A stretch of DNA of 8,629 bases from a virus. This document shows positions 964 to 6,005 of the stretch, in pieces. How positions within the stretch are numbered: position 1 is the stretch's first letter; every line of letters begins with the position of its first letter. A model generated the notes under the pieces. It saw only the letters and a list, made by a program, of their open reading frames with translations. It was not told where the DNA came from and ran no database searches. The stretch lies in the UHGV virus genome UHGV-1435958. One strand, written 5' to 3'. The position numbers and the translations under genes were made by a program.

Positions 964-999
964 AATAAAAAACGTGCAGTGTTGGTAATACTGCACGTT
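964..999 (-). terminator. Rho-independent terminator downstream of the minus-strand regulator gene
   Basis: Perfect 10-bp inverted repeat AACGTGCAGT (971-980) / ACTGCACGTT (990-999) with a 9-nt loop. On the minus strand it is followed by TTTTATT (complement of 964-970). A second small hairpin GTACCA-ttcg-TGGTAC lies at 1001-1016, directly after the stop codon. Confidence 0.55.
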
Positions 1000-1016: not shown

Positions 1017-1199
1017 TTAATCCTTTTGTTTGGCAGACATGAGATCTTCTGCTGCATCTTTAGAGTAGTTATCAATCAGATAACCTAAAATCTCTGTCCA
1101 TGTAATTGTTTTTCCTAGTTTTACACTGGCATTTATAGCCAGTCGTTCTAGTTTCATTTTTCTTTCTTCCGTCACGTTATAAGTCGTGCGCTTTGCCAT
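1017..1199 (-). CDS. Small DNA-binding regulator, ribbon-helix-helix-like (60 aa); candidate prophage repressor
   Basis: ORF track. Basic N-terminus with a short alternating stretch (KRTTYNVTEE) followed by two predicted helices, a pattern typical of RHH (Arc/CopG-type) proteins. Transcribed divergently from gII. Own terminator downstream. Confidence 0.45.
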   Translation of the reverse strand: MAKRTTYNVTEERKMKLERLAINASVKLGKTITWTEILGYLIDNYSKDAAEDLMSAKQKD

Positions 1200-1246
1200 T
1201 TTTTACGCTCGTTCAATGCAATATTTGAAGTGAGTATACATGCTCA

Positions 1247-1325
1247 TGAACTCATATCATCCAATCCTCTTGAACTCACTAGCTCACTGGTGTAATGTTA
1301 AAACACTAATGAACTACTGAACTCA
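1247..1325. promoter_or_regulatory. Divergent promoter/operator region with repeated TGAACTCA octamers
   Basis: TGAACTCA at 1247-1254, 1271-1278 and 1318-1325, plus TGAACTAC at 1310-1317. Candidate sigma70 promoter for gII: TTGAAC (1270-1275), 17-nt spacer, TAATGT (1293-1298). TATACT-like -10 on the minus strand (complement of 1233-1238) upstream of the regulator gene. Confidence 0.4.
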
Positions 1326-1368
1326 TGTGTTAGTAAGTCGTCATTTTTGTAATTTTGAGGATTTATTC

Positions 1369-2421
1369 GTGATCGATTGGCTTACCGGGATTTTCCCTTG
1401 CACACACAAACCGCTTCCGGCGGGGAGTGTTGTCAGCGTTGATGCTGACGGTGCAATTGAGTGGGAAACCGTTAAGCGACTGACTGTTCGCGGTTCGCAT
1501 GAAGCAACGATGAAAGTACGATCGATAGGATCTAATGGCGAAGGTAAAGCGACACATTTGTACATTGATGGTAATCCTTCCAAGTTTCTGCAGGGGCATT
1601 CTGTTGTTGGGTCGGATGATATACAAGGGCTCATGTTGACGGTCTATGCCAGGATTTTATCCTTATTGAATATTCCTCATGATTTAGCGTCTTATAAAGC
1701 CGTTATGGCAGGTCAGTATAAAATTTCACGTATTGACATTAATTACATGTATTCATTATCTACGCTGGAAAATGTCAGATCATGGCTTTATGCCGCCGAA
1801 TTTAAAGCTAAAACACGCCATGGTCGCGCATGTGGGAAAGGCGGTACAGTTTATTTAGGTAAAAACTCCCGTCGATGGAGTCTGAAATTTTATTCAAAAT
1901 ATGATGAACACGTTTCTGGTAAAAAAGGGCACCAGATAGCCGAAGAGTTTGTACGAGCCGGGTTACTGGACTGGACGAAAGATAAATTACGTATTGAATT
2001 AACATTAAGAACAACTGAGCTTATTGATTTAAATTTAACGCTTGGCGCTAACTGGAATATGAAAACACCACGTCAATTATTCTCTGAATATGTAGGGAGA
2101 ATAGCAATGAATCAGAATGCTATTTTAAGTGATGAAAAAATAACGAAACTGCCAAGAAAAATACAGTCAACTTATTTACTTTGGAAACAAGGGGCTAACA
2201 TGAAAGAAATGTTACCTCATAACACTTTTTATCGCCATAGAAGAGAATTGCTTTCGTTCGGTATCGATATTAATTTCTATTGTGATTCACCAGACTCTAA
2301 TAACGTTGTTCCGCTAATAAGAACGCTGGAAGCCAAGCCAGCGGAAATCCCCTTATGGATTTATGAGAAAGGTTTTATTTTCGATTACAACCGTATTTCG
2401 CACGCCAGTAGCTGGCATTAA
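1369..2421 (+). CDS. gII: Replication initiator protein (gene II-like rolling-circle nickase)
   Basis: ORF open from 1327 (GTG). I prefer the GTG at 1369 because GAGGA sits 7 nt upstream and the product then begins MIDWL (M13 pII begins MIDML). Recalled M13 pII motifs KVLQGHNVFG and NNVVPLVRF appear here as KFLQGHSVVG and NNVVPLIRT. Confidence 0.8.
   Translation: MIDWLTGIFPCTHKPLPAGSVVSVDADGAIEWETVKRLTVRGSHEATMKVRSIGSNGEGKATHLYIDGNPSKFLQGHSVVGSDDIQGLMLTVYARILSLLNIPHDLASYKAVMAGQYKISRIDINYMYSLSTLENVRSWLYAAEFKAKTRHGRACGKGGTVYLGKNSRRWSLKFYSKYDEHVSGKKGHQIAEEFVRAGLLDWTKDKLRIELTLRTTELIDLNLTLGANWNMKTPRQLFSEYVGRIAMNQNAILSDEKITKLPRKIQSTYLLWKQGANMKEMLPHNTFYRHRRELLSFGIDINFYCDSPDSNNVVPLIRTLEAKPAEIPLWIYEKGFIFDYNRISHASSWH
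2107..2421 (+). CDS. gX: Gene X-like protein: in-frame internal restart within gII, co-terminal with pII (104 aa)
   Basis: In-frame ATG at 2107 preceded by GGGAGA at a 6-nt spacing. Product starts MNQNAILSD, compared with M13 pX MNIYDDSAVLD. An alternative in-frame ATG at 2059 has no RBS. Confidence 0.5.
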   Translation: MNQNAILSDEKITKLPRKIQSTYLLWKQGANMKEMLPHNTFYRHRRELLSFGIDINFYCDSPDSNNVVPLIRTLEAKPAEIPLWIYEKGFIFDYNRISHASSWH

Positions 2422-2432
2422 AGGAAAGTAAT

Positions 2433-2750
2433 ATGTCTAATTATGGTCTTTTCGTTAAGGGTAAAATGTTGGGAGCCCGCCAACGTAATAAAGTTAATGG
2501 TCAGGGCTATTATAATGAAATTGGTATTGGCCTTGAAATACCTGATGGTTTTGGTGGTACAAAGCAGGATCAAATTATTATTCGAGTTTCTCAGGCTCTC
2601 GTTAACGCAGGTCTAATGAACCAGGCGAATGCTTTCATTGGGAAATTAGTTCAAATTCCTGTCTATGTCCGTGCGTGGTCAATGGAGGGTAGGGAAGGTG
2701 TAACTTATAATGTTGCTTCCGATGGTGGCATCGCAGAGATCAAAGGTTAA
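2433..2750 (+). CDS. Putative ssDNA-binding protein occupying the gene V position (105 aa)
   Basis: ORF track. AAGGAAAG RBS 5 nt upstream. Assigned by position between gII and gVII only; I could not align it by eye to M13 or IKe gVp. Confidence 0.5.
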   Translation: MSNYGLFVKGKMLGARQRNKVNGQGYYNEIGIGLEIPDGFGGTKQDQIIIRVSQALVNAGLMNQANAFIGKLVQIPVYVRAWSMEGREGVTYNVASDGGIAEIKG

Positions 2751-2752
2751 AT

Positions 2753-2839
2753 ATGGACGATGTTATTCAAATTTTGATAGCGTCTGGCATCGTTATTTCT
2801 TTTGGCCTCGGCGCGATTACTGCGGGGATCTTTCGTTAA
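2753..2839 (+). CDS. gVII: Minor coat protein pVII-like (28 aa)
   Basis: Manual translation: MDDVIQILIASGIVISFGLGAITAGIFR. Small hydrophobic peptide between gV and gIX; the tail resembles M13 pVII (ISVVLCFALGIIAGGQR). Its stop overlaps the gIX start (TAATG). Confidence 0.6.
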   Translation: MDDVIQILIASGIVISFGLGAITAGIFR

Positions 2840-2934
2840 TGTATATCGTTTATTTCTTCGGGGCTTATACCTTTGGTTTTGCCCTTTTCTATGCGGTCGG
2901 TTCATTTAAATCATTTTCTGACCGATTAATGTAA
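2839..2934 (+). CDS. gIX: Minor coat protein pIX-like (31 aa)
   Basis: Manual translation: MYIVYFFGAYTFGFALFYAVGSFKSFSDRLM, compared with M13 pIX ending YFTRLM. This is the C-terminal part of track ORF 2710..2934, restarted at the ATG that overlaps the gVII stop. Confidence 0.6.
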   Translation: MYIVYFFGAYTFGFALFYAVGSFKSFSDRLM

Positions 2935-3242: not shown

Positions 3243-4562
3243 ATGAGAAGGAAAATATTAATTCTTTCCGCTGTCCTCATTTCTCCTTTTTCACATGCTG
3301 AGTCATGGGAAAGCATTACTAAATCCACTTATCAAAGTTCTGCCTATGCTGAAAGTAAGCAAATAACCAATCAGGATGGCTCTAAGATAACGGTTTACTA
3401 TATTGATGCTGCTATGCAGGCCTCCGCTTGTCAGGGTGCTAAATCCAGTGCTCAGAGTGTATTTACTCGGATTAAACCAACTTATGAGGGTATCTGGCCT
3501 GATTCTGAATTCCGTCTTGTTTTTACTGGCGATTGTACTTACAGCGATTCACCAGGGCAGAAGGATAAATATTGGTCTTTAACGGCTTATATTGTTGGTA
3601 ATATTCAGCGTTCTGTTCCTGATGAAAAACCTACTGACCCGACACCAGAAGAAATTTGTGAAGCGAAGCCGCCAGAAGAAGGTGTATTTAATAATGTTGA
3701 TTCATATGATGGTGGTCGCTATATCTACTATAACGGCTGTGAATATGAGGCTACTGGTGTCATTGTTTGTCAGGGTGATGGTACTGTTTGCGCTGCAACA
3801 TGGAAGCCTACAGGTGCTGTAGCTGACCCCTCTGATAAACCCTCAACCCCCCAAAATGGTGGTGGTGAGTCTGGCGGTGGTGAGTCCGGCGGTGGTGAGT
3901 CCGGCGGTGGTGAGTCCGGTGGTGGTGAGTCCGGTGGTGGTGAGTCCGGTGGTGGTGAGTCTGGCGGTGGTGAGTCCGGTGGCGGTAGTTCTGGCGGTAG
4001 TTCTGGCGGTAGTTCTGGCGGTGGCTCTAGTGGTTCCAGTCTTTCTAAAGGTGATATTCAGTCTGCGATCGAAGGTGCTTCACCCAAAATAGCCAGCGAT
4101 ATTCATGATAAATTAACGGAGAAAGACACTTCATCAGATGATAAAAAAAATGCCGATGAACAAACCAGGAATAATATAAATCGTCTTGACGATTCCATTA
4201 ACAATCTTACGCGGGGGGCTGGCCGTTTTGCTGACCCTTCAGGTGGTGATTCTCGTTATGGAAAGGGCGACTCTGAATTAGATGGCGCTTCTACTTTAGC
4301 TGATTCTGAATTGGGAATTGAAAAGGATTCTCACGGTGCTTTATGGGAAGCATTTTTAAATAAAGGTGCTATGCTGCCTAATTTACCCAATGGTAACGGC
4401 TGCTCTGATTTTATTATTTTTCCCGGAGAGGTTTATCAGATTGATATTGGTTGCGATAAATTACTGACTATTAAAGATGTTCTTTCATGGGTTTTTTATT
4501 GCCTTACGTTCTGGTATGTCTTTACTTCTTTAACTTCATTGCTTCGCAAAGGGGGTGAGTGA
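3243..4562 (+). CDS. gIII: Minor coat/adsorption protein pIII (439 aa)
   Basis: Track ORF 3099..4562 starts inside gVIII; the real start is taken as the ATG at 3243, after the terminator, giving signal peptide [20 protein letters not shown]-terminal membrane anchor resembles the M13 pIII C-terminal domain ([28 protein letters not shown] here). Long Gly-rich linker. Confidence 0.85.
3858..4040 (+). repeat. Tandem 15-nt repeats encoding (GGGES)x8 followed by GGSS-type repeats (Gly/Ser linker of pIII)
   Basis: Eight consecutive near-identical 15-nt units ggtggtgagtcYggY from 3858 to 3977, then ggcggtagttct-type units to about 4040. In frame with gIII. Confidence 0.9.
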
Positions 4563-4903
4563 TGCCTTTATTATTAGGTATTCCTGCATTGTTGCGTTTT
4601 CTTATTGGTCTTGTTCCTTTGTTTATTGGCTATGTGGCGAGTTTTTTAGCTCGACTTGCTACCAGAACAGGATTAATCGCCTTTGCATTGGTCGCATTAA
4701 TTACAACAACTGTTACGCTTTTAATGCAGTACCTTGCTGAGGTCATGTATAACGGTTTACCTGCTGATTTCTCCCATTTAATGGCGTCTGTATTGCCTGA
4801 CCATTTTCAGGCGTGTGTTAACGTTATTATGGTTACTCGTATCAGTGTTTTTGTTTTCGATTTAAAACAAAAATTTCTTGATTATGCAAACAGGGTGATT
4901 TAA
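4562..4903 (+). CDS. gVI: Minor coat protein pVI (113 aa)
   Basis: ATG at 4562 overlaps the gIII TGA stop (TGATG); GGGGGTGAG RBS upstream. [14 protein letters not shown]... and the C-terminal FVFDLKQKF closely parallel M13 pVI (MPVLLGIPLLLRFL..., IFIFDVKQKI). Confidence 0.85.
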   Translation: MPLLLGIPALLRFLIGLVPLFIGYVASFLARLATRTGLIAFALVALITTTVTLLMQYLAEVMYNGLPADFSHLMASVLPDHFQACVNVIMVTRISVFVFDLKQKFLDYANRVI

Positions 4904-5998
4904 ATGGCGGTTTATGTAGTAACAGGCAAATTAGGCTCAGGCAAGACACTTGTTAGTGTTTCCAGAATACAGGAAAGACTTGCTAAGGGTTGTCCTGTTG
5001 CCACTAATCTTGATCTTAAATTGCATAATATGCCTATGGTTGGGCGTTATGCGAAAAAAACGCGCGTTATTCGCATTCCTGACAAGCCTTCATTAAATGA
5101 TTTACTTGCTATTGGTATTGGGAATACATCTTACGATGAATCCCGTAATGGCCTCCTTGTACTTGATGAATGTGGTACTTGGTTTAATTCCCGCTCATGG
5201 GGTGATAAAGACAGACAACCTGTTATTGACTGGTTTTTACATGCCAGAAAATTAGGCTGGGATATTATATTTTTGATTCAGGATATTTCGATAATGGATA
5301 AGCAAGCTCGTCTGGCGCTTGCTGAGCATGTTGTTTATTGTCGCCGTTCAGATAAATTAAACATTCCTTTTGTTGGCTCCATTATGAATTTGGTTTCAGG
5401 GGCGAGATTTTCTTTACCAAAGGTACACTTTGGCATTGTCAAATATGGTGATAATGTTAATTCAATCACTGTTGATAAATGGATATATACAGGAAAATCT
5501 CTTTATTCTGCTTACAATACCAAACAAGCGTTCACAGATAATTATCCTCATGGCGCATTTTCGCTTTTGCCACCATTTATCACGCACGGTCAATTTTCTG
5601 TTCACAGAGGATTTAATTATTATATGCGCCTCACTAAAATTTATTTTCGCAAATCGAACCGTCTTATATTAATGCTTTCTTTTTTGGCGCTGGGGCTTGC
5701 GTTTGGTTTCTGGCTCCAGTCTGGAAAGAATGTTGATGAAATCTCAGCTATTAAATCTGCTTATGCTGAACAGGCGAGGGCGGTAACGCCTGATTCGTCC
5801 AGTGACTTACCCCGACTTTCTATTAATTCTTTTTCACAACTTGGCTTTGACGTTTCCGTTACGTTTGTTGATGCAAAAGGTATGAAATATCAGTATTTTG
5901 ATTTGATTAAAGATGGTTATTCCGTTGATATTAAAGATGCCTGTCGTGTTGTTATTAGAAAAGGCCGTTATTTACAGACTGTTACCTGTCAGGAGTAA
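4904..5998 (+). CDS. gI: Assembly ATPase pI (Zot-like, 364 aa)
   Basis: Starts MAVYVVTGKLGSGKTLVSV (M13 pI starts MAVYFVTGKLGSGKTLVSV); Walker A motif GSGKT; LVLDECGTWFN and WFLHARKLGWDIIFL blocks conserved. ATG immediately after the gVI stop. Confidence 0.9.
   Translation: MAVYVVTGKLGSGKTLVSVSRIQERLAKGCPVATNLDLKLHNMPMVGRYAKKTRVIRIPDKPSLNDLLAIGIGNTSYDESRNGLLVLDECGTWFNSRSWGDKDRQPVIDWFLHARKLGWDIIFLIQDISIMDKQARLALAEHVVYCRRSDKLNIPFVGSIMNLVSGARFSLPKVHFGIVKYGDNVNSITVDKWIYTGKSLYSAYNTKQAFTDNYPHGAFSLLPPFITHGQFSVHRGFNYYMRLTKIYFRKSNRLILMLSFLALGLAFGFWLQSGKNVDEISAIKSAYAEQARAVTPDSSSDLPRLSINSFSQLGFDVSVTFVDAKGMKYQYFDLIKDGYSVDIKDACRVVIRKGRYLQTVTCQE
5624..5998 (+). CDS. gXI: Gene XI-like protein: in-frame internal restart within gI (124 aa)
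   Basis: In-frame ATG at Met241 of pI, the same relative position as M13 pXI (MKLTKIY in M13, MRLTKIY here), followed by a hydrophobic segment. The RBS is weak (AGAGGA 13 nt upstream). Confidence 0.45.
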   Translation: MRLTKIYFRKSNRLILMLSFLALGLAFGFWLQSGKNVDEISAIKSAYAEQARAVTPDSSSDLPRLSINSFSQLGFDVSVTFVDAKGMKYQYFDLIKDGYSVDIKDACRVVIRKGRYLQTVTCQE

Positions 5999-6005
5999 TA
6001 TTATT

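Follow-up and report, generated by a model that had tools for sequence, protein, structure and literature searches.

An on/off cassette governing a filamentous phage is already known from the cholera-toxin phage CTXphi, and the 60-aa system described here would be a further case of that kind. The rstR repressor alleles of CTXphi fall into two size classes, one of ~330–354 bp (ET, class, 232, ZJ and ZHJ) and one of 180–204 bp (calc, 5 and 6), and in lux reporter assays all eight repress their cognate rstA promoters in an allele-specific manner (PMC11509585, Table 2). For instance, rstR-6 lowers ig2-6 from 2.2e5 to 1.9e4, and nothing is stated in the same paper about the fold of the small alleles (PMC11509585). 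The UPphi filamentous phages, for their part, have been described as having structural genes like those of IKe and I2-2, gII and gV genes common to Ypfphi and CUS-1, and GGGES repeats in gIII; the description mentions three reverse-strand ORFs, which it leaves unexplained, and names no regulator, promoter or repressor (PMC7307601).

The DNA analysed here, a stretch of 8,629 nucleotides that we refer to as the window, is a UPphi-type filamentous (inovirus) prophage of E. coli integrated at dif, and it fits the published UPphi group (PMC7307601). Its genes run in the order gII, gV, gVII, gIX, gVIII, gIII, gVI, gI and gIV, and it is 98–99.5% identical to prophages of 47 complete E. coli genomes, e.g., that of UM146, where it adjoins hipBA. 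Prophages of this type were identified in 47 of 5,426 complete E. coli genomes (~1%, at ≥80% coverage), as well as in Salmonella, Klebsiella and relatives. The right prophage end carries a 28-mer, GGTGCGCATAATGTATATTATGTTAAAT (8039–8066), that exactly matches the E. coli dif sequence. An ORF starting past dif (8210–8629) bears the annotation of a site-specific integrase in strain MB51, with another integrase gene following it there, which suggests that another element adjoins dif. Just 3' of gIV there is a hairpin (7272–7315) whose loop, GGGTAGGTGCGTGAGCCC, is conserved with that of the annotated 'morphogenetic signal' of I2-2 and whose stems differ from those of I2-2 by apparently compensatory changes; this hairpin is probably the packaging signal. 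At the other end, otherwise near-identical prophages differ in the accessory genes found left of the regulator (1–928 of the window and the left flanks of L001 and L002): in the window and UM146 a 140-aa membrane ORF (phrog_4174, common to the window and CUS-1) accompanies a Zn-ribbon protein of the ECs_2282 family, and MB51 has a Doc-family toxin.

A first-pass annotation of the window had drawn attention to a 60-aa basic protein resembling ribbon-helix-helix (RHH) proteins and transcribed away from gII. This ORF is indeed present at 1017–1199 on the minus strand, divergent from and immediately upstream of the replication gene gII (starting at 1369, plus strand), and an RHH fold is predicted for its product, a hypothetical protein in the annotation of RefSeq relatives. 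Comparison with the homologs in L006, L009, L011 and L017 gave pN values of 0.05–0.13 against saturated pS values of 0.7–0.9 (pN/pS 0.06–0.15), and the closer homologs of L015 and L016 gave pN/pS ratios of 0.02–0.04; with ratios this low, the ORF is under selection and encodes a real protein. An exhaustive profile search identified 77 clusters of the family at 50% identity, nearly all of 50–90 aa, and a scan of genome contigs with the regulator returned only four loci, the pattern being too specific. The AlphaFold2 model of the monomer, built on a 57-sequence alignment, had a pLDDT of 94.5, with residues 1–10 extended, and helices at 11–28 and 34–59 connected by a G-K-T turn. The protein thus has the N-terminal beta-strand followed by two helices within ~45–60 residues by which RHH proteins are recognized, and it is structurally similar to solved RHH proteins. 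Profile methods were less informative: there was no match to a curated RHH profile, searches of the ORF and region against Pfam, NCBIfam and Rfam assigned no family, and the sole library match was to phrog_2503 of PHROGs, of 'unknown function'. ParG was matched by only 4 of the 57 family members (E ≥ 0.019), and the RHH matches in HMM searches against PDB sequences were all sub-threshold (ParG, E = 0.07; TTHA0139, E = 0.19). An RHH fold is supported by the structural model.

The layout of the locus had been likened to an RstR-type repressor and its operators, a likeness that our comparisons among loci bear out and to which they add a sequence relationship. The 60-aa protein is ~41% identical to features annotated as rstR in CTXphi and pre-CTXphi variants (pairwise BLASTP, E = 4e-14), and a tblastn search of deposited phages identified the rstR features of GQ466611 ('environmental RstR'), KR063268 and GU942563 with E-values of 4e-6 to 6e-6; these RstR-annotated homologs lie divergent from rstA. 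In addition, the family profile hit P0125, a 91%-identical relative of a CTXphi RstR-annotated protein, with a library-wide E-value of 3.6e-5. No homology was found to the classical and El Tor RstR proteins, which are of the Cro/cI helix-turn-helix type: the 60-aa protein has no match to HTH_3 or related Pfam families, and its predicted fold is different. The rstR-6 primers encode MKKKYTSLRV... and ...NTQKTDLKR, both of which fit the 60-aa family, and judging from only these ~19 primer-encoded residues rstR-6 probably belongs to it; looking for rstR-6 in viral contigs by primer sequence and by protein search did not find it.

The proposed target of the regulator, gII (1369–2421, plus strand), encodes a replication initiator with Phage_CRI and G2P_X_C domains (Pfam, E = 9e-70) that is 86% identical to the gII protein of CUS-1 and 56% identical to that of I2-2. 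Its start is almost certainly GTG 1369 and not GTG 1327, since a Shine-Dalgarno sequence (GAGGA, 1357–1361) precedes the former, PGAP calls the same start in UM146, and both the Phage_CRI match and the homology to the CUS-1 and I2-2 gII proteins begin there. With this start the divergent control region, bounded by the regulator ATG at 1199 and the gII GTG at 1369 and containing both predicted promoters and three candidate operator clusters, measures 169 bp (1200–1368) rather than the 127 bp given earlier, and an octamer at 1318 falls 44 bp upstream of gII, in the predicted 5' leader, instead of marking the edge of the ORF as had been stated. All genes upstream of gII are on the other strand, so gII would need a promoter within the control region. 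The predicted gII promoter (1270–1298, plus strand), read from the sequence, has a –35 box TTGAAC (1270–1275), a 17-bp spacer and a –10 box TAATGT (1293–1298). A strict consensus promoter scan left it uncalled, and the –10 box of the window is weak; TTGAAC, the spacing of 17 and GTG-TAnnnT are kept in L006, L009, L011 and L013 with better –10 boxes (TATTAT, TAGTAT). The predicted regulator promoter (1233–1260, minus strand) has a –35 box ATGATA (1260–1255), a 16-bp spacer and a –10 box TATACT (1238–1233); it was the sole promoter-like site called in the strict scan of 900–1450, its –35 box is poor, and relatives retain its GAGTATAC box. From these two promoters, transcripts would start near 1305 (plus strand) and near 1226 (minus strand).

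The three exact TGAACTCA octamers (1247–1254, 1271–1278 and 1318–1325) and the one variant, TGAACTAC (1310–1317), that the first-pass annotation had reported are all present, and shuffling shows them to be non-random: chance alone predicts 0.30 copies of TGAACTCA in the window, counting both strands, four copies were reached in 0 of 200 shuffles, and when the intergenic region alone was shuffled, not one of 100,000 trials yielded three or more. In line with what had been claimed, the octamer at 1271 overlaps the predicted gII –35 box, TTGAAC at 1270–1275, 17 bp from TAATGT. Elsewhere in the window there is a single further exact copy (7859, minus strand), inside a conserved ORF (7767–8000), beside the near-copy TGAGTTCAaTGAGTTT in a 9-bp register (7859–7875); it could be a chance occurrence or a distal regulator site. 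A separate observation concerns MB51 (L002), in which an IS1A interrupts the gII gene (4415–6244) of an otherwise intact prophage, the regulator and octamers being unchanged.

The octamers proved to be parts of larger composite sites made up of two or three abutting 8-bp units. Cluster S1 (1239–1254) consists of the units CATGCTCA and TGAACTCA and lies in the spacer of the regulator promoter, its TCATGA core being invariant in nine diverged loci; cluster S2 (1271–1286) consists of TGAACTCA and CTAGCTCA and lies over the –35 box and spacer of the gII promoter, with TTGAACTCA invariant in 9/9 diverged loci and a perfect palindrome, TGAACTCATGAGTTCA, in L009. Cluster S3 (1310–1333), at ~+6 to +29 of the predicted gII transcript, has the three tandem units TGAACTAC, TGAACTCA and TGTGTTAG, and three abutting units are found there in all diverged loci. 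The unit can be written TGA-NN-TCA with AC or GT at its centre, so its two forms are reverse complements, and AC↔GT double changes in several lineages have flipped a unit to its reverse complement with the site retained. Across nine aligned diverged control regions, the mean identity was 0.85 in site columns (25/56 invariant) vs 0.59 in the others (11/80 invariant; Mann-Whitney p = 2e-8, Fisher p = 7e-5), the site limits for this test having been set after the alignment was seen. Distant members of the family retain the three clusters with different unit sequences, such as CTGTTATGC in L070 and a perfect tandem of three CTGAGTAA units in L073, and I2-2 has the three-unit tandem GATACGTG, TATACACG, TATACATC. 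A blastn search with the region gave no match among deposited phages. A prediction that regulators with equal putative DNA-facing residues (R, T, S, T) share operators failed, P0083 having CTGAGTAA and the I2-2 type GTATACAC, so that no simple residue-to-base recognition code can be claimed.

In comparisons among related loci, the octamers follow the regulator and not the replication protein, as seen from a regulator swap in CUS-1, from retention of the sites whatever the Rep protein, from their absence in loci with the same gII and another regulator, and from the conservation of the site columns given above. CUS-1 (UTI89) and the window share gII (80% DNA identity), the 140-aa ORF and, left of the regulator, a hairpin; their similarity breaks off at ~1003 and resumes exactly at the gII start codon. 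In the interval CUS-1 encodes a helix-turn-helix protein of 148 aa, and its 171-bp intergenic region is unrelated to that of the window and contains inverted repeats of its own, which indicates that regulator and control region form a cassette swapped exactly between the candidate origin hairpin and the gII start codon. Regulator homologs with 78–88% identity occur beside another Phage_CRI lineage (~27% identical to the gII of the window and accompanied by an Ff-type gV; L006–L013) and beside a Rep_trans (RstA-type) initiator (L017 and L029), and a more distant homolog occurs beside a REP_ORF2-G2P protein. The loci of the 78–88% homologs have TGAACTCA or its reverse complement TGAGTTCA at the same offsets from the regulator ATG (~42–48, 66–72 and 113–119), the exception being S1, which is degenerate in L017 and L029, and the sequence around the sites is diverged, as are synonymous sites. 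Octamers and regulator thus co-occur across four Rep backgrounds (three besides that of the window), and the layout with the regulator divergent from the Rep gene recurs in 20+ related loci with four Rep types.

Loci with the gII lineage of the window give the same picture. Among 35 such loci, 13 carry a 60-aa-type regulator and the other 22 do not share it, I2-2 with its distant homolog being counted among the latter; all 13 have three octamers and all 22 have none, although many of these loci are near-identical and the counts overstate the number of independent events. Conservation of the octamers in related prophages was one of the points on which the first-pass annotation had said its reading could be refuted, and in these 13 regulator-bearing loci all three copies are kept. 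The remaining 22 have their own repeats instead and encode, besides the I2-2 homolog, 20 helix-turn-helix regulators (at least three alleles) and one 62-aa protein; judged by sequence, then, the intergenic repeats change with the repressor allele, other alleles having other repeats at equivalent positions. The 62-aa protein (phrog_5219; E. coli 700481, L005, 2694–2882, minus strand) is a third regulator type in the same slot, with its own ATCTAAGAACTTATA repeats, and its N-terminus, MPTKHINDVQ, fits the primer-encoded start of rstR-calc, MATKHIKDST. An hhalign comparison of the 60-aa family with this 62-aa regulator found no relationship.

Based on these observations, we propose, with a probability of roughly three in four, that the 60-aa protein is an RHH repressor that binds the tandem 8-bp units over the gII promoter and its own, and that the ensemble is a portable immunity cassette. 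The protein, which we assume to act as a dimer, would read the 8-bp quasi-palindrome TGA(AC/GT)TCA through its N-terminal beta-ribbon (K3–E11, invariant among close homologs), and as the units are arranged head-to-tail at 8-bp spacing, neighbouring dimers could bind cooperatively. Occupation of S2 (–35 box and spacer) and S3 (first ~30 nt of the transcript) would block transcription of gII/gX/gV and the downstream operon, and with gII blocked there would be less rolling-circle replication and virion output; the integrated copy would be kept quiet and immunity would be allele-specific. S1, lying within the divergent promoter of the regulator itself, would provide negative autoregulation, so that the placement of the three clusters over the promoters predicts both gII repression and negative autoregulation. 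Regulator, operators and both promoters would together make up one ~365-bp cassette (about 1004–1368), exchanged between inoviruses with unrelated Rep proteins.

Two phages whose deposited genomes are those of free phages also have homologs of the regulator. In If1 (U02303, L079) an intact, unannotated 67-aa homolog with 58% identity is encoded in the 'major intergenic region' (1980–2183), and the annotated 'intergenic region' of I2-2 (X14336, L003) holds another unannotated homolog (2725–2918, minus strand), in which a 1-nt insertion breaks the frame relative to the intact 65-aa homolog P0138 of contig L069; either the old sequence contains an error here or the gene is a true pseudogene. Elsewhere in If1, 'ORF348, eryA-like' and a 147-aa ORF (216–1914) resemble by eye an IS200/IS605 TnpB/TnpA insertion. 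Homologs in If1 and I2-2 imply that the module is not tied to integration and may be a general throttle on gII, episomal phages included. The earlier label of a 'lysogeny switch' therefore stands, on comparative grounds, as far as a regulator with operators over the gII promoter is concerned, and its switch wording goes beyond the evidence. These free-phage copies, together with the intact copy in the I2-2-like L069, where no accessory genes were called in the fetched stretch, and the poor –35 box of the regulator promoter, would also fit a protein that binds the octamers mainly to govern copy number or gII dosage of the replicating episome, as CopG does in rolling-circle plasmids, rather than as a switch for maintaining lysogeny, or that partly activates its own promoter. 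We consider this unlikely as an account of the module: a governor role is compatible with immunity, and the same repression would silence dif-integrated prophages; moreover, the gene at the equivalent position in CUS-1 and Ypfphi is a cI/RstR-like helix-turn-helix repressor, and in CTXphi arrays it is as the immunity repressor that the homologs are annotated. There is also a precedent for control from the host, gII expression in Ypfphi being under the host regulator RovA (PMC4266046), and the octamers might by analogy be sites for a host transcription factor, with the 60-aa protein having another job. This is very improbable given that the sites travel with the regulator allele across Escherichia, Salmonella, Brenneria, Scandinavium and Providencia, and that a change of regulator allele brings other repeats, also within E. 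coli; in addition, a LexA-box scan of the intergenic region found none.

The remaining alternative, already raised in the first-pass annotation, is that the octamers are gpII-binding sites of the plus-strand origin, as in the Ff phages, whose origins have short gpII-bound repeats next to the nick site, upstream of gII. Comparison across Rep types and regulators largely refutes it, leaving it scarcely credible: the octamers do not covary with the initiator lineage, being missing in 22/22 loci of the same gII lineage that have another regulator and present beside both the ~27%-identical Phage_CRI lineage and the Rep_trans initiator. A different element does track the gII lineage, namely a hairpin on the far side of the regulator gene (972–998, plus strand; ACGTGCAGT-GTTGGTAAT-ACTGCACGT), followed by the inverted repeat GTACCAttcgTGGTAC (1001–1016); the DNA fold of 972–1016 has a free energy of –17.3 kcal/mol (z = –5.4). 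Almost all gII loci of lineage A, CUS-1, I2-2 and L005 among them, have this hairpin on the distal side of the regulator gene irrespective of which regulator they encode, and loci of the other Phage_CRI lineage have a different conserved element in its place. The hairpin loop, GTTGGTAATACTG, is similar to the M13 nick region (GTTCTTT^AATAGTG), which would put the nick between T986 and A987, and M13 too has a second inverted repeat after this region. The octamers, rather than adjoining such a nick-site hairpin, are ~250 bp from it with the regulator gene in between. We infer that 972–1016 is a better candidate than the octamers for the plus-strand origin of this gII lineage and lies outside the switch. 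Read on the minus strand, the hairpin precedes T6 and might thus double as a terminator for the regulator transcript.

If the 60-aa protein is the repressor proposed above, then the ORF and its sites provide a concrete point at which phage production would be controlled, as would immunity between UPphi and CUS-1/Ypfphi phages residing together; these phages have the replication module in common and different regulators. More tentatively, and with rather less than even confidence, we speculate that the phrog_2503 proteins are inovirus immunity repressors of an RHH class not described before, with a shared operator grammar of three clusters of abutting 8-bp units, its cassette shuffled among at least four unrelated Rep families in Enterobacterales, Vibrionaceae and Pasteurellaceae. 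To such a class would belong the small 'environmental' rstR alleles of CTXphi and the unannotated copies of If1 (intact) and I2-2 (frameshifted), and loss or retention of the repressor would help decide whether a phage is productive or quiescent. The comparison suggests, in addition, that the rstR alleles of CTXphi, dimorphic in size, represent two or more unrelated folds, and it draws attention to regulator genes missing from the annotation of the If1 and I2-2 reference genomes.

Several known systems resemble the proposed one to differing degrees. MetJ with its met-boxes, and Arc and Mnt of phage P22, are alike in fold and operator grammar only, MetJ binding tandem 8-bp boxes, and they gave no homology signal. 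CopG (pMV158) and omega (pSM19035) are closer to the role proposed for the 60-aa protein, both being very small RHH repressors of replication-gene promoters, and the short repeats bound by omega adjoin one another in series, whichever way each is oriented, an arrangement comparable to the 8-bp units of the window; however, neither has detectable homology to the 60-aa protein, CopG is co-transcribed with rep rather than divergent from it, and the omega units are 7 bp. An omega-like RHH ORF has been predicted in the inovirus PMBT54 (PMC10534721). El Tor and classical RstR, YPO2273 of Ypfphi and the 148-aa regulator of CUS-1 (which matches HTH_3, E = 1.6e-9) occupy the same slot with the same logic, i.e., a divergent repressor, the Rep promoter and allele-specific repeats, but these helix-turn-helix repressors are of the Cro/cI type (110–150 aa), with an unrelated fold, other inverted repeats and no similarity to the 60-aa protein. 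The small rstR alleles of CTXphi and pre-CTXphi differ from the window in their Vibrio host, in having RstA (Rep_trans) as the Rep protein and in their operator sequence; like the 60-aa protein, they encode ~60–65 aa and are divergent from the Rep gene, and the pre-CTXphi intergenic region, like that of the window, has three repeat clusters (GCATGCAATAT). From these comparisons, the 60-aa element would be RstR-like in its working and is homologous to some proteins that bear the RstR name, while standing outside the classical RstR family.
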